A stretch of 64,000 nucleotides of DNA, from IMG/VR virus record IMGVR_UViG_3300042400_000593. One strand, given 5' to 3'. Numbering within the stretch: the first letter of the stretch is position 1; every line of letters begins with the position of its first letter. A program made the position numbers and the translations under genes. Positions 6,605 through 14,796 of this stretch are shown in pieces. The notes under the pieces were generated by a model. The model ran no database searches. It was not told where the DNA came from and saw only the letters and a list, made by a program, of their open reading frames with translations. This DNA comes from a virus (Duplodnaviria; Heunggongvirae; Uroviricota; Caudoviricetes).

Positions 6605-7429
6605 ATGGCACAAAATCCTTTACAACAATATTACAGACAACCAAAAATTTATATTCCATTGCCTTCAGGCGGCATTTATAATAAACTTGGAAGTTTATCA
6701 GGTGATGCAACCCACATGCCAATTTATAGCATGACTGGTATGGATGAAATTATTGTTAAAACACCTGATGCATTAGTATCGGGGAAAAGTACAGTATCGA
6801 TTATTGAAAGCTGTTGCCCAAATGTTAAAAACGGTTGGGAAGTAACATCATTAGATACTGATTTATTGTTAGTTGCAATTCGTATTGCAACATTTGGGAA
6901 TATTTTAGAAATTACAAATGTATGTGATAAATGTGGAACAGAACACGACTACGATGTAGACTTAACTACAGTAGTTAATCATTTTGCACAGTGCAAATAT
7001 GATAGTGTTATTGAGTATAATGGATTGATTATTAAATTACAACCGTTAACTTATAAACAAACTACTGATTTTTCAATTCGTAACATGCGTTTACAGCAAC
7101 ACTTATCAGCAGCTGCAGCTCAATCAGCTGATGAACAGAAAAAGATTATTGAGGAGTTATTTAAAGACTTAGGCGCATTACAAAACGACATTTATTCTGC
7201 TAGTGTTGAGTCAGTTGATACTGGAACAGTTGTTGTAACCGAACCTAATTTTATTTACGATTGGTTAACAAACTGCGACAAAGATGTATTTGATAAAATC
7301 CGCGAGCAATTTAATAAAAATAAAGACGTTTGGAGAGTTCCAGATGTTAAAGTTAAATGTTCGTCATGTGGTCACGCTGCTGAATTGTCAATCGATTTAG
7401 ATCAATCAAATTTTTTCGCAGCCGCCTAA
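6605..7429 (+). CDS. Baseplate hub assembly protein / tail assembly chaperone (T4 gp26-like)
   Basis: NPLQQYYRQPKIYIPLPSGG start, TSLDTDLLLVAIRIATFG, CDKC and CSSC Cys pairs. SD GGAG precedes the ATG. Confidence 0.7.
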   Translation: MAQNPLQQYYRQPKIYIPLPSGGIYNKLGSLSGDATHMPIYSMTGMDEIIVKTPDALVSGKSTVSIIESCCPNVKNGWEVTSLDTDLLLVAIRIATFGNILEITNVCDKCGTEHDYDVDLTTVVNHFAQCKYDSVIEYNGLIIKLQPLTYKQTTDFSIRNMRLQQHLSAAAAQSADEQKKIIEELFKDLGALQNDIYSASVESVDTGTVVVTEPNFIYDWLTNCDKDVFDKIREQFNKNKDVWRVPDVKVKCSSCGHAAELSIDLDQSNFFAAA

Positions 7430-8490: not shown

Positions 8491-8554
8491 AATATTCCTT
8501 TCAGGATATCCCTTATATAATATGAATATTTATTAAAAAATAAATCTCATATTA

Positions 8555-9120
8555 AAAGATGAACTATCGTTCATCTATATTTCGCTTTCGCTCAATATTG
8601 TTTTCTCTAAAAGCTATAATGAAAAAAATTAAATTATAACTGAAATATTATAATTTAATTATTTTATTTAAAGAGATATCACTTTTGAAGTCAGATGCAC
8701 CCTAATAAAACTGGATGCAAGAAATCACCCCATCGCCATGGAATCGCAGTAAGAATTTATCTGACTGTAGACTCTTGTTATCGGCTACCTCCCAACCGCC
8801 ACTTACAGGTATTTTTAAGATATAACTTTCAGGTGCTTCGTATATCATTGCAAGATTGTTACTATTACTAGTATTCTACAGATTTAAGAACTATGTATTC
8901 TGTTTCAAATACAGCTAGTCCACCATTCCGATTAAACAAAGCATTGACATCAATGGATGTTGCTTTTGGCATCCTCTCGCGTGAGGGTAGTGTTTAAAAG
9001 CCGTTGCACAATCAACGGTTTGAGCAGCGGTTCTCCTTCCAGAACTTAACTCAGCAGTATTACAAACTGGCCTGCCAACCTTATGTTAGTGTTAAAATAA
9101 AAGTGTTTTGTGTGTTTTGT
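8555..9120 (-). ncRNA. Candidate structured non-coding RNA (family not recognised; strand tentative)
   Basis: No ORF of 60 aa or more in 8491-9162. Numerous hairpins, a GC-GAAA-GC tetraloop on the minus strand, and TGTAAATA at 9132-9125 pointing into the region. Confidence 0.4.
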
Positions 9121-9162
9121 TCAGTATTTACAAATGTGTTTTGAACAAGGGATTAAAAGTGG

Positions 9163-9579
9163 CTAAATGCGAGCAGCAGCTTCTGCTAAATCATTTGCGC
9201 GTTCGTTACCAGGATTACCTGCATGGGCTTTAACCCATTGCCAATCTATAGTGTGTGCAGCAGCAACGGTTTCTAATTTAAGCCATAGATCACGATTTAA
9301 GTAATCAGTGCGCCCTTTCTTTTTCCAATTAGGAAACCATTGTGTAAAACCGTCAACAAGATATTTTGAATCAGAATAAATCCTAACTTTGCATGGTCTT
9401 TTTAAACGCGATAGTGCTTCAATAGCAGCTTGCATTTCCATGCGATTGTTAGTAGTTTGTGGTTCTGTTCCAGAAAATTCTTTAATGACGTCTCTGTATT
9501 GCATAGTAGCACCCCATCCGCCTTTACCTGGATTTGGTACACATGCGCCGTCTGTATAAATTATTACGAGTTCTTCCAT
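9163..9579 (-). CDS. rnhA: Ribonuclease HI
   Basis: IYTDGACVPNPGKGGWG, TTNNRMEMQAAIEAL, SDSKY, WVKAHAGNPGNERANDLA. The last acidic catalytic position reads ERAN-D rather than the usual ERAD. Confidence 0.95.
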   Translation of the reverse strand: MEELVIIYTDGACVPNPGKGGWGATMQYRDVIKEFSGTEPQTTNNRMEMQAAIEALSRLKRPCKVRIYSDSKYLVDGFTQWFPNWKKKGRTDYLNRDLWLKLETVAAAHTIDWQWVKAHAGNPGNERANDLAEAAARI

Positions 9580-9733
9580 AGTGTTTTGTTAGATTATATT
9601 GTGTTTAGTATTTTTAAACAAATATTTATCTGAACAACTTCTCCACCTTGTTAGAAACGATTATACAGTCATTAGTATCAAAAGTCAACTGCTATTATTA
9701 CCAATGGTAAATATACACAATATAGGAACACAT

Positions 9734-11419
9734 ATGAAAGTTACTGACATTTTAAAAGAAGAGTCTGAAGAAGAAATTAATCAAAATCGCGATAAAATTT
9801 TAGGACAGATACCTGCTGAATATACTAGTAAAAATTCACTTTATCAAAGCTGGAGGAAAGTAGTTGCAGGAGCACACAGACGATGTTGGTTTGCTAACGC
9901 TAAATCTGTTCAAGAAAGAACTCCATTAAAACTAAGTCGTGAATTTAATGTAACATATCAATATCTATGGGATTTAGTTAAGGTGCAACAATGGAAATGT
10001 GCAATTACTGGTGAACCATTAGCTCCGATCGGTAATAAAGATGATAATAATCGAATAAGTATTGATCGTATTGATTCAACTAAAGGATACATACCTGGTA
10101 ACATTCAATTTATTACAGCAAGAAGTAATTTAATGAAATGGACACATGATCAAAATGACTTTGTTAAGTATTGTCAGCAAATTGTTAGTTACACTAATAA
10201 GAATGGAATACCGTATGATCCTGCAGATCAATCGACTAAATTAAAAGAAGCATACATTAAACAACCACCGAGCATTTTAAGAACATGGAAAAACAAAAGT
10301 GGTCCATTACATTATTTTTTAACTTCACCTACTAATGAACCATTATATGCAGATTTAGCTGCTAAAATACCGTGGCGTAGTAAAACTGGATCTACTTTTG
10401 AAAAGATGTTTCTAACACCGCAAACTGCAGCTACTTTGCTTAATTGGGTTAAATTAGGAGATGCTGCTTACAGAGAACAAAATATTCCTGAGTTAAAAGA
10501 AATTAATTCTAGATTACTTATAGTAATGGGAAAATGTATCTCATCGGCTAGTAGTCAACTAGAACAAGGAAAGTATCCCGAAGAGCTAGGTGTACCAAAA
10601 TCTGTATTAGCATCTCTTAAGAATTTTAAAATTGCATTGCAAGATCTACATGATGGCAAAAAAATGATTCTTACAAAAAAAGCAGGCGAATCACAAACTG
10701 ATGGTAGATACATGACACAAATAGAACGTAAACAGTTTGAAGATTACATGTTACAAATTGATCAGTATTTACAAAACCGCCCTTCTTATGAGCAAGCAAA
10801 AGCTCTTTATGATCAAGTAAGACATCATATTGATAAAATTACACGACGTACCCTACAGAATACTGCACAAGGTATAACTCCTGCACAATTTCTTGCAAAT
10901 CAACTAGCGTCATCAAAATTTGATGTAGTAGATGATGATCGATTTACATCTAGTGATTTTGCAGCGTTAGATCCTCAACTTCAAAAACGCATTACCGCAC
11001 AGCAACAACGAGGAGCAATGCCAGATGAATGGGATAGATCAAAACCGGAACATAGATCGTGGAAAAAGGTTTTAAATAATGCTTTTACACGTATTTTGTC
11101 ACGCTCAAAAAAACGTGAAGAAACTGGTAAAACCGCGTTAGATCAACATAAGTTTAATGCTAGTAATGAAGAATTATGGAAAGTAATAAATGACCAAAAT
11201 TGGACATGTCCGTATACTGGAAACAAACTAGAAGCTACTGGAGAAGGTTCTGATAACCAACTTAGTCCAGATCGTATTAACTCAAGTTTAGGATATGTTT
11301 CGGGTAACATACGATTTGTTACTTACAGAGTTAACATTATGAAAGGGGATCGATCATCGGCGGATTTTGTAAACAGTTGTAGACAAATAGTAGCTAATCA
11401 AAAATCTAAGAAACCTTAG
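9734..11419 (+). CDS. Protein with two EndoVII/HNH-like (DRID-type) domains
   Basis: Likely start MKVTDILKEE at 9734 (SD AGGA). Duplicated domains: CAITG...SIDRIDSTKGYIPGNIQFITARSNLMK and CPYTG...SPDRINSSLGYVSGNIRFVTYRVNIMK. Confidence 0.75.
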   Translation: MKVTDILKEESEEEINQNRDKILGQIPAEYTSKNSLYQSWRKVVAGAHRRCWFANAKSVQERTPLKLSREFNVTYQYLWDLVKVQQWKCAITGEPLAPIGNKDDNNRISIDRIDSTKGYIPGNIQFITARSNLMKWTHDQNDFVKYCQQIVSYTNKNGIPYDPADQSTKLKEAYIKQPPSILRTWKNKSGPLHYFLTSPTNEPLYADLAAKIPWRSKTGSTFEKMFLTPQTAATLLNWVKLGDAAYREQNIPELKEINSRLLIVMGKCISSASSQLEQGKYPEELGVPKSVLASLKNFKIALQDLHDGKKMILTKKAGESQTDGRYMTQIERKQFEDYMLQIDQYLQNRPSYEQAKALYDQVRHHIDKITRRTLQNTAQGITPAQFLANQLASSKFDVVDDDRFTSSDFAALDPQLQKRITAQQQRGAMPDEWDRSKPEHRSWKKVLNNAFTRILSRSKKREETGKTALDQHKFNASNEELWKVINDQNWTCPYTGNKLEATGEGSDNQLSPDRINSSLGYVSGNIRFVTYRVNIMKGDRSSADFVNSCRQIVANQKSKKP

Positions 11420-12307: not shown

Positions 12308-13036
12308 TTACAATTTTAATTTACAGTTGTCGCCGTGAAACAGAGTATAATGATTTTTTGCAATCGTCTTGTTACAATGCTCGCATGTTCGTTGATGTTT
12401 AGGTTGTTTCATCGGATTGTTATCTCCTGAATTTTTTAACTTGGACATTTGTTTATTATATTCAGATGCAGATTTTCCATACATTGGATTTTTTTCGCCT
12501 TTTAATCCTACTTTAGGATTTCCTTTTAATGATTTACTTATATTTTCATTATGGGTCGCCGGGCGAAATTCTGCATAATTTTTAACACCATTGCTTTGTT
12601 TTTGTTTAACTTCTGAAGAGTGCTTTTTTCCAAAGTGTGGACTTAATTCACCTCTTTTACCGTACATAGGATTTTTATCTCCTTGCCTTGCTAAACCTTT
12701 CTTTGCACGAGTTATTTCTGACTCAATTCTACCTAATCTATTTCCTGGATCAATTTTAGCATTTGATTGATTAAAACTCATAGGATCGTTTTTAGCATCT
12801 AAAATTGTAAGGTAATCAGATTCTAATTTTCTTATATATGATGCAGGACCAATTGCTAAGATTTCATATCTCCAGTCATTTCTATTTTCTAAAATTAACG
12901 GCTTTACTATTTTACTTGAACACAGGTAATTCTCATGGCAAGCTGGATTCCACCCAGCTTGCGTTTTTGATCCTATATACCATTTATTAGTAGGTATGTG
13001 AATCCACTTGTAAAGGTACGGTATTGACTGTTTCAT
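12308..13036 (-). CDS. GIY-YIG-like homing endonuclease with NUMOD3-type repeats (Seg-like)
   Basis: YLYKW...KWYIGSK, and NPMYGK / HFGKKHSSE repeats; free-standing, directly downstream of gp46. Confidence 0.8.
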   Translation of the reverse strand: MKQSIPYLYKWIHIPTNKWYIGSKTQAGWNPACHENYLCSSKIVKPLILENRNDWRYEILAIGPASYIRKLESDYLTILDAKNDPMSFNQSNAKIDPGNRLGRIESEITRAKKGLARQGDKNPMYGKRGELSPHFGKKHSSEVKQKQSNGVKNYAEFRPATHNENISKSLKGNPKVGLKGEKNPMYGKSASEYNKQMSKLKNSGDNNPMKQPKHQRTCEHCNKTIAKNHYTLFHGDNCKLKL

Positions 13037-14796
13037 TGTATAGTTGGATAATCGTAATTCGTAAAACCGTTTTCTTTGTAAACTCGCAATATGTTGTCTA
13101 CTCGTCCAATTAATTCTTCTTTATGACTAATTAACCAAATTGACGAATCTGATTGTCTAGCTTTAGCTTTTAAGATTGACAACGCACACTCAATGCCGTT
13201 CGAATCAAGCCCGTTGTCTAACAATTCGTCAACAAACAGTAGGTTAATTTTTTGATATAAGCTTTCCCATACATCTCGAAAAGCTAAACTTAACGAAATA
13301 ATAACTCTATTCATTTCTCCTCTTGAAAGATTATGAAAATCTAAGTCTTGTCCTAATTGTGTGATTTCAACACTTAAATCGTTTTGGAATACAACATTAT
13401 GCGGCAATCCCATCTTATCTAAGTAGTGAGTTAATCGGTTATTTAAGTATGCTAAGTTTTGATCTATAATCTTTTTACGGATAAAACTGTCTTTGTTTGT
13501 TAGTAATTTAAGCAAAAACTCCTGATGATCTTTGAGTGCATTTGCTTCATTAATAGTGTCCCAAACAATTTCTTGCAATGCAGCATTGCGTAATTCGTCA
13601 ACTTGTTCTTGATATGGATCAGTCTCGACTGCTTTAATTTCTAATTGTTGTTCTAATGATTTAAAGTTAGTTTGATGTTTTAATGCGTCTTCTAGTGTTT
13701 CGTAATAGGTGTCCGGACGCTTTTCAATTACTACAAACTTACTTAATTCTTCACAGATTTTAGTGTGATCTGCTAGTACTTTATCATAATATTTCTGTGC
13801 TTCGAGCAAATGTTGTGTAGCAGTTTCTAATAATTCTTCATGTTTATGATCATGCAAATCTTGGTCACAAGCATGACATTTTTTATTATCTAATGAATCG
13901 ATTTCTCTAACATATTTGTCTCTTGTTTTAAGAGCTTGAGTAGTTGCAGATTCTAATGTTGCTCTTTCTTTGTTAAGACTCGTCATTGTTGCACGTTGAT
14001 CTAAGTATTCTTTTAACAATGCATGATTGGCAATTTCAGCTTCGATATCTACACCTTCCATCTCTACGATAGCACGAGCGAGTTTTTCTAAGTCAGTTTC
14101 TTGTTGACTATACCATGCTTTTTGTCTTAATAATAACGTATCAATGCTCTGTTGAATCTTCTCATTTGACTTTTTAGCAGCTTCAATGTTAGCAGTTTCT
14201 TGATAAATTGTATCTTTAGTTTGTCTAATTAGTTCTTTAAGTGCTTCAGCTTTTTCACTTAGTAATGTAATACCTAGCAGTTGTTCAATGATCTCACGTT
14301 GATCATTTGCTCTCATTGATAAGAACGGTTCTGTATAAGTGTTTAATGCGACAATATGTTTAAACATATCATGACTCATACCAAATAAATGATGTAAGTC
14401 TTTCTGTGTCTCACGCATATCGCCTTGTGCATCATCGGCTAAAACTTGAGATTCTTCGTTAACAAAAAACTTAAGAACAGTTGGTTTACGACCACGTTCA
14501 ATGCGATAAGTGTTACCGTCCTTTTCAAAAGTTAAGGTAACTAGCATGTTTTTATTGTTAATTTTATTGATTAAATTGTCTTTTTTAATGTTAGTAAGAG
14601 CAGTACCGTAAAGCGCATAACTCAATGCGTTTACGATAGTTGTCTTGCCTGTACCGTTTCTAGATCCAGCGTCATCACCGCCTTGATCTAAGTTTTCTCC
14701 TAGTACAAGTGTTAAGTTTTCTTTCTCAAAATCTACAGCTTGAGTTTGATTCCCTACACTCATAAAATTCTTTACAGTTAAATTTTGTATTTTCAT
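13033..14796 (-). CDS. gp46: Recombination endonuclease ATPase subunit (T4 gp46 / Rad50 / SbcC)
   Basis: KNFMSVGN, Walker A NGTGKTT, coiled coil with CHAC zinc hook, LSRGE signature, Walker B LLFVDELLD, LISH. Confidence 0.95.
   Translation of the reverse strand: MKIQNLTVKNFMSVGNQTQAVDFEKENLTLVLGENLDQGGDDAGSRNGTGKTTIVNALSYALYGTALTNIKKDNLINKINNKNMLVTLTFEKDGNTYRIERGRKPTVLKFFVNEESQVLADDAQGDMRETQKDLHHLFGMSHDMFKHIVALNTYTEPFLSMRANDQREIIEQLLGITLLSEKAEALKELIRQTKDTIYQETANIEAAKKSNEKIQQSIDTLLLRQKAWYSQQETDLEKLARAIVEMEGVDIEAEIANHALLKEYLDQRATMTSLNKERATLESATTQALKTRDKYVREIDSLDNKKCHACDQDLHDHKHEELLETATQHLLEAQKYYDKVLADHTKICEELSKFVVIEKRPDTYYETLEDALKHQTNFKSLEQQLEIKAVETDPYQEQVDELRNAALQEIVWDTINEANALKDHQEFLLKLLTNKDSFIRKKIIDQNLAYLNNRLTHYLDKMGLPHNVVFQNDLSVEITQLGQDLDFHNLSRGEMNRVIISLSLAFRDVWESLYQKINLLFVDELLDNGLDSNGIECALSILKAKARQSDSSIWLISHKEELIGRVDNILRVYKENGFTNYDYPTIQ

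Follow-up and report, generated by a model that had tools for sequence, protein, structure and literature searches.

What does a giant phage encode in a stretch of several hundred nucleotides that appears to specify no protein, and does the RNase HI gene beside it disclose the function? The question is raised by a gap (8491–9162, 672 nt) in a 64,000-nt stretch of DNA, hereafter called the window, that represents bases 88249–152248 of a 372,016-bp IMG/VR virus record with direct terminal repeats. The source is an uncultured, giant, T4-like freshwater phage, with T4-like genes for a gp20-type portal, a gp26/51-type baseplate hub, and gp46 (SbcC/Rad50-like). On the minus strand, the gap is bounded by the stop codon of RNase HI (9163) and the start of a gene for a 282-amino-acid (aa) protein (8490). 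An earlier note on this DNA proposed a large structured non-coding RNA (ncRNA) here, with its own late-type promoter, and suggested packaging, protein scaffolding, or priming as its role. Comparison with related sequences indicates that 8554–9124 on the minus strand is very probably a stand-alone gene for a large structured ncRNA (~420–570 nt) and gives this RNA, termed copy A below, a place in a wider family.

No credible or conserved open reading frame (ORF) was found in the gap. Every reading frame is interrupted by 10 or more stops in the copy of the window and by seven or more in the other four lineages that were checked, and the indels that distinguish relatives within the gap are mostly of 1 nt, so the description of the region as ORF-free is upheld. 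It is also the sole stretch of the window of at least 450 nt that lacks an ORF of at least 90 aa, and thus the only large gap, as had been claimed. The core is richer in GC than its surroundings, as the earlier note had observed (41–47% vs. 18–23% in the flanking 74-nt linker). Both strands fold with a minimum free energy better than that of shuffled sequence (minus strand, z = −3.79; plus strand, z = −2.07).

Relatives were sought by searches with the flanking proteins and by exact DNA words. The element is present in ~18 IMG/VR contigs and in six Joint Genome Institute (JGI) freshwater metagenome contigs, all of which belong to one clade of ~372-kb phages and carry it directly behind RNase HI. 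The 14 distinct sequences fall into five lineages with a core identity of 76–100% (gaps counted, two partial rows left out). One relative shows 83% identity over the locus as a whole and 89% in the gap, but only 73% in the flanking 282-aa protein. The RNase HI of the window is 99–100% identical to that of one group, but the RNA of the same group only ~92%, which points to recombination between co-occurring phages. Searches of deposited phages with blastn and tblastn were negative for the gap, the 282-aa protein, and a family member of marine origin; the RNA family is thus absent from deposited phage genomes at BLAST sensitivity. Within its own genome, the core was found by nhmmer at this locus only, and the detection of paralogues required covariance models. 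A scan with the 14-mer CCATGGCGATGGGG proved unspecific, and four candidate relatives (L148, L158, L172, and L178) were dropped as chance matches in unrelated DNA.

The helices of the RNA were assembled from a covariation scan together with RNAalifold and were counted on an alignment of the 14 distinct relatives (A4). In this alignment, the 111 proposed pairs have 98.1% of their cells paired, and both sides change in 17 of them. Shuffled alignments give 5.0 ± 1.5 such pairs (none of 500 reaches 17), and controls in which the pairing was slid give 0–2; covariation among relatives therefore exceeds the shuffles, and the conclusion that the gap holds a structured RNA is carried by this count together with the conservation among relatives. 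Support is strongest for H4, H6, the closing pairs of H8, H9, Px, H11, and T1, and Py is invariant (Table 1). The two covarying pairs of T1 change from A-U to G-C and from C-G to U-A.

The strand, which the earlier note had left unresolved, can be assigned from the 97 G-U cells of the alignment: 98.1% of cells are paired when the minus strand is read, as compared with 92.1% for the plus strand. Since the G-U pairs, the direction of the terminator, and the promoter boxes agree, the RNA is encoded on the minus strand, as far as sequence comparison can establish it.

Most of the helices named in the earlier note were recovered by the comparative approach. The hairpin AGATGAAC/GTTCATCT (8557–8576) is the terminator hairpin T2; ATATT-GA-GC-GAAA-GC-GA-AATAT is T1, which covaries; TGCATCC/GGGTGCA is H14; CCGTTG/CAACGG is H4; and TGTATT/AATACA lies inside the variable hairpin H8. 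GGATGTT/GGCATCC is rejected, as ACAUC/GAUGU covaries instead. ATTCCAT/ATGGGGT is possible, but competes with a long-range GGAAU/AUUCC pairing; L170 breaks each alternative (GGAAU/AUUCC and UCCAU/AUGGG) once. Among other candidates, a GGAUGCC/AACAUCC helix loses to H6, and GAGUC/GACUU and CAGU/ACUG conflict with Px and Py. A candidate pseudoknot (GUAAG/CUUAC), a candidate closing helix (CACU/AGUG), and several putative loop–loop pairings are either invariant or broken in L164.

In the 3′ domain, the invariant helix Py (CUGUAGA/UCUACAG) and the long-range helix Px (UCUUGC/ACAAGA, three covarying pairs) accompany a 36-nt invariant stretch and a GGAGGU loop. The peripheral hairpin H8 differs among relatives in both sequence and length, yet always closes with GGNC/GNCC, and its closing pairs covary.

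Which family the RNA belongs to was addressed with three covariance models: R1, for the 5′ domain (161 positions, 41 pairs); R2, built from copy A and its paralogue B together; and R3, for the 3′ Py domain. Rfam 15 has no family at threshold in the gap or in four relatives, and the window contains no tRNA or tmRNA according to Rfam and ARAGORN, in accord with the earlier statement that none was recognizable. Neither the gap (E ≤ 10) nor four relatives (E ≤ 5) match the Rfam models for GOLLD, ROOL, HEARO, or OLE, and for group I and II introns, RNase P RNA, and tmRNA no Rfam or ARAGORN match was obtained at the gap.

R1 detects copy B elsewhere in the same genome (240402–240558; 52.6 bits, E = 5.7e-10 genome-wide) and the orthologue of B in the sister genome G001 (63.1 bits, E = 2.2e-12 genome-wide). 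This orthologue is recognized in turn by the Rfam model of Polynucleobacter-1 (RF01718) over its full length (1–141) and with the same helices, at 28.7 bits, which is below threshold, and E = 3.6e-5 genome-wide. R3 finds the 3′ domain directly downstream of the 5′ domain of B (18.6 and 16.4 bits), where compensatory changes are present in Py, Px, and H10. With the rows of B added, 23 of the 41 pairs of the 5′ domain change on both sides, vs. 7.8 in shuffles, in an alignment that was fitted to the model. A third copy, C, is a canonical RF01718 (Table 1) that extends to ~340 nt and has twin UAAUGCU boxes; as it has its own sigma-70 promoter (TTGACA-17-TATAGT) and terminator, it is a free-standing unit. 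R2 scores canonical RF01718 copies at the exact Rfam site with E = 0.0013 and 0.011, in a search space of 6.3 kb only, and R1 and R2 align all 161 positions of the 5′ domain of A onto the RF01718 sites in L179, L180, and L181. The consensus architecture of RF01718 (hairpin A, hairpin C, an outer helix enclosing ACUA, a CC/GG hairpin, and hairpin E) is present in copy A. From these model-based comparisons, we conclude that A and B are probably full-length paralogues and both distant relatives of Polynucleobacter-1, and that copy A is one of three paralogous RNAs in the 372-kb phage, C being the third.

Polynucleobacter-1 has been treated in one paper only, in which no function was assigned and the motif was found in no purified phage (Weinberg et al., 2010; PMC2864571). 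It shares with copy A the 5′ order of elements: a GGCC...AAUA-loop hairpin, a second hairpin, and a GUUG/CAAC-type hairpin, then an outer helix enclosing ACUA, a CC/GG hairpin, AUG/ACG, and a further hairpin. Freshwater metagenomes are the source of both, and a canonical copy resides in the genome of copy A. In contrast, the Rfam model does not score copy A, the link running through paralogue B only, and the length of copy A is three to four times that of the 141-nt motif, in which the 3′ multi-helix domain is missing. The earlier designation as an uncharacterized phage RNA is thus borne out with respect to a large structured ncRNA, by conservation and covariation, but has to be modified in that the RNA, as a relative of Polynucleobacter-1, is not wholly uncharacterized.

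The family extends beyond these copies. A search pattern for the 5′ module common to A and B (UAAGGUU together with a GGCC...UAAUAC-loop hairpin) matches more than 118 IMG/VR contigs, the clade of copy A included; this and the locus counts that follow hold among the matches listed. R2 scores 98 of 100 pattern loci at E < 0.01, these loci having been pre-selected by the pattern. Where gp46 is present (78 loci), the RNA always lies downstream of it, at a distance of 682–4377 nt, and shares its strand; where the hub gene is present (49 loci), it always lies farther downstream than the RNA and has the opposite orientation. An RNase HI homologue occurs in none of the 109 other family loci. The window retains the family order, with genes for a homing endonuclease, a 113-aa protein, a PDDEXK nuclease, RNase HI, and, in this phage only, a 606-aa EndoVII/HNH protein in the interval between gp46 and the RNA (~3.9 kb inserted). 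Given this synteny and the absence of RNase HI from the other loci, the RNase HI neighbor is, on sequence grounds, a lineage-specific insertion and not a conserved partner.

Copy A has in common with the gp46-linked RNAs a 5′ lead-in (ACAC-N-UAAGGUU), an H1 hairpin whose loop reads GGCC...GUAAUAC, the H3/H2 junction, both the CACUNCCC and AAUCGGAA motifs, and a site between gp46 and the baseplate hub gene. It differs in that the RNA of its clade is longer, with H4, the outer helix, and the large 3′ domain, in that ~3.9 kb including RNase HI separates it from gp46, and in that its twin boxes are degenerate. Judged by position and predicted structure, copy A corresponds to an RNA that is widespread behind gp46 in uncultured T4-like phages of aquatic habitats; it represents a remote and extended version of an RNA family that has hardly been described. 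No publication was found on an RNA behind gp46 in aquatic T4-like phages.

In loci L188–L296, most of the gp46-linked RNAs repeat one 7-nt word, ~330 and 390 nt after UAAGGUU. These twin boxes are mostly ACAUGAA, with the variants GCAUGAA, ACAUAAA, and AUCAUCA; they are ~58 nt apart, flank a hairpin, and change together between contigs. Copy A has only a degenerate pair, AGAUGAA in the terminator stem and AUAUGAG after it, and L176 and L164 have AGAUGA twice. No twin boxes were detected on searching the core of A; for UGCAUC/UGCAUC, a joint change is seen in L170 alone, which is a single event.

Regarding transcription, a sigma-70-like promoter precedes RNase HI, and a terminator scan found none between RNase HI and the RNA, so that co-transcription of the RNA with RNase HI by read-through is likely. 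A late promoter belonging to the RNA itself is doubtful. The box TGTAAATA stands where the earlier note had placed it, both upstream of the core and ahead of the head gene starting at 468 (the latter copy at 511–518). At the position of the former box, three relatives of distinct sequence (L175, L026, and L164) carry TATAAATA; in L170 the box is lost there, and CATAAATA occurs at a shifted site closer to the core. However, TGTAAATA is not enriched between genes (4 of its 43 genome copies are intergenic), which leaves the case for the promoter weak. The forms that are enriched between genes genome-wide are NATAAATA; for example, GATAAATA is intergenic in 19 of 37 copies. TATAAATA is rare in the window (5 copies vs. 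14.7 expected). This scarcity and the intergenic enrichment of NATAAATA fit a T4-type late promoter with a free first base.

Several points weigh against the assignment of the gap to this RNA family and to an RNA gene with defined ends. RF01718 itself has no match to copy A at E ≤ 10, be it in an 851-nt, a whole-genome, or a 176-nt search, and copy A does not reach the Rfam gathering score of 37 bits. The links of R2 to C and of R3 to B are significant only in small, pre-chosen search spaces, and a Smith–Waterman comparison of A with C is no better than with shuffles (z = −0.86). Only five real lineages stand in the alignments, so some covariation counts reflect few events, and the model-fitted alignments A6 and A8 are biased towards structure. 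Furthermore, TGTAAATA matches the enriched promoter form of the genome poorly, for which reason the 5′ end of the RNA is undefined. The mechanism considered below is drawn by analogy and is not a result.

Table 1. Positions of the RNA, its helices, the associated signals, and the related genes (window coordinates unless marked as genome).
Feature	Position	Strand	Remarks
Conserved RNA core (~420 nt)	8674–9093	−	76–100% identity across five lineages; pairing and covariation
5′ domain	8928–9087	−	R1, 197 bits; layout collinear with Rfam Polynucleobacter-1
Three-way junction of 5′ domain	H1 9053–9076; H3 9022–9052; H2 9030–9045	−	
H4 hairpin, CCGUUG/CAACGG	9001–9018	−	Three covarying pairs
Outer helix	8992–8997 with 8932–8937	−	Encloses ACUA, H5 (8973–8986), and H7/H6 (8938–8966)
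H8 peripheral hairpin	8888–8921	−	Length varies: 35 nt here, 61 nt in L170, 28 nt in L164
3′ multi-helix domain	8765–8881	−	Py stacked on Px, together enclosing H9 (GNRA loop), H10, and H11
H14 hairpin, UGCAUCC/GGGUGCA	8696–8719	−	95.9% paired; C-G to U-G in seven sequences
AT-rich variable linker	8600–8673	−	~18–22% GC; only 47–86% identity to relatives, many indels
T1 hairpin	8577–8598	−	GNRA tetraloop and tandem G-A internal loop; two covarying pairs
T2 intrinsic-terminator-like hairpin, AGAUGAAC-GAUA-GUUCAUCU, and U tract	8554–8576	−	Terminator scan; invariant in 14 sequences
Late-promoter-like box, TGTAAATA	9125–9132	−	~32 nt upstream of core
RNase HI gene	9163–9579	−	Pfam RNase_H, E = 2.8e-44; neighbor upstream of RNA
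Sigma-70-like promoter, TTGACT-17-TATAAT	9660–9688	−	11/12 consensus positions; upstream of RNase HI
gp46 gene	13033–14796	−	
Hub gene	6605–7429	+	
Copy B	Genome 240024–240631 (locus L183:1100–1700)	−	Full-length paralogue with twin ACAUGAA boxes
Copy C	Genome 322605–322749 (locus L179:1490–1835)	+	Canonical RF01718, 59.6 bits

The neighborhood of the gap invites comparison with ColE1 RNA II and the T4 oriF/oriG origins: a long structured transcript is followed by an AT-rich tract of 18–22% GC, and RNase HI lies directly upstream in every member of the clade, so that an R-loop in this tract might be processed by RNase HI and prime replication. Such a primer is very improbable. Since RNase HI is lineage-specific here, the suggested priming role is disfavored: in the 109 other family loci, none of which has RNase HI, the RNA stands behind gp46; paralogues B and C are without an RNase H neighbor; and a more distant phage (L030) has RNase HI but no gap at that place. 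Moreover, the unit ends in an intrinsic terminator, the AT-rich tract is its least conserved part, gene orientation does not switch strands at the locus, and near 100 kb the cumulative GC skew dips only slightly, to a local minimum. For packaging and protein scaffolding, the other roles suggested earlier, no supporting evidence was obtained. An origin as a decayed or recoded protein gene or as the remnant of a self-splicing intron could be imagined from short ORFs of 48–58 aa in the gap and from the homing endonuclease genes nearby, but can in practice be excluded: a 1-nt indel interrupts the 48-aa ORF in relatives, stops are frequent in every lineage checked, substitutions are compensatory in helices and not periodic, no Rfam intron matches, and the gap is flanked by a stop codon and a promoter box instead of exons.

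Somewhat better placed, though still improbable, is a cis-acting mRNA element, which would be either a 3′ untranslated region that stabilizes or processes the gp46/RNase HI mRNA or a conditional terminator or leader for the late gene of the 282-aa protein. The constant position downstream of gp46 on the same strand accords with this, as does the lack of a terminator between RNase HI and the RNA, and Polynucleobacter-1 was flagged as possibly cis-regulatory when it was described (Weinberg et al., 2010; PMC2864571). Yet the size, the multi-domain junctions, and the 36-nt invariant unpaired stretch far exceed what is found in known stabilizers; the downstream 282-aa gene has its own AATAAATA box after the terminator; copy C is free-standing with its own signals; and copy B is located among tRNA and tmRNA genes.

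The stand-alone ncRNA gene that is preferred over these alternatives would comprise the ~420-nt core, the AT-rich linker, the conserved GNRA hairpin, and the intrinsic terminator; in this lineage, RNase HI and several nuclease genes would have been inserted between gp46 and the RNA. Its transcription would depend on read-through from the RNase HI promoter and perhaps also on the weak late-type box. The large size, multiple domains, invariant unpaired segments, variable hairpin, fixed position, and three paralogues suggest, with a probability somewhat short of even, that the RNA acts in trans through its three-dimensional fold, either as a scaffold to which a protein or nucleic acid would bind or by self-association of the kind known for the phage RNAs GOLLD and ROOL, and that neither priming by base pairing nor regulation in cis would be involved. 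Large, intricately folded non-ribosomal RNAs are rare, and several have proved to be ribozymes or self-assembling RNA cages. GOLLD and ROOL, which are large, ornate, often phage-borne RNAs known from cryo-electron microscopy (cryo-EM), are of a comparable kind: copy A shares with them a size of several hundred nucleotides, numerous junctions, unpaired nucleotides that are conserved, peripheral hairpins that vary, and a phage location, and one paralogue here lies beside tRNA genes; copy A differs in having no sequence or structure match to either Rfam model (PMC12286853).

That the gp46-linked RNA is a new class of RNA machine of aquatic T4-like phages (a ribozyme, an assembly of RNA alone, or a guide-like scaffold with short repeated boxes that a single partner reads) is unlikely, but it would be of consequence: A, B, and C in giant phages would then be three specificities, and the family would be a phage counterpart of GOLLD and ROOL fixed beside recombination genes. 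Independently of this possibility, the family is common in uncultured aquatic T4-like phages and holds a fixed genomic position, yet no more than a 141-nt fragment of one of its branches has been catalogued so far; a tempting but very probably wrong tie to RNase H and replication priming is removed. With its full length, strand, and helices now defined, the RNA is ready for synthesis, probing, and cryo-EM.

The surroundings of the RNA contain several mobile nuclease genes. A 606-aa ORF with two EndoVII/HNH-like domains (window 9599–11419, plus strand) occurs in this phage only. It is missing from L005, L010, and L012, in which window position 9690 (9672 in L010 and L012) is joined directly to 11426; because the DNA of the relatives joins across the site, the gene looks like a recent mobile insertion. 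A free-standing NUMOD3 homing endonuclease gene (window 12308–13036, minus strand) abuts the end of gp46. Taken together, the NUMOD3, PDDEXK, and HNH genes mark the gp46–RNA junction as a hotspot for mobile nuclease insertions. In the marine locus L290 (2065–5346), the gp46 homologue matches in two pieces (residues 1–58 and 52–582) that are ~1.5 kb apart, which suggests an intron or an inserted gene within gp46.

Copy B belongs to a tRNA/tmRNA island, ~2 kb from the tmRNA gene, and is followed by an HNH/NUMOD3 homing endonuclease gene. The tmRNA itself (genome 242613–243039, minus strand; locus L297:13114–13540) is of the permuted (two-piece) betaproteobacterial type (RF04321, 101.9 bits; RF01850, 90.4 bits), and a tRNA gene cluster adjoins it, which hints at a freshwater Burkholderiales host.
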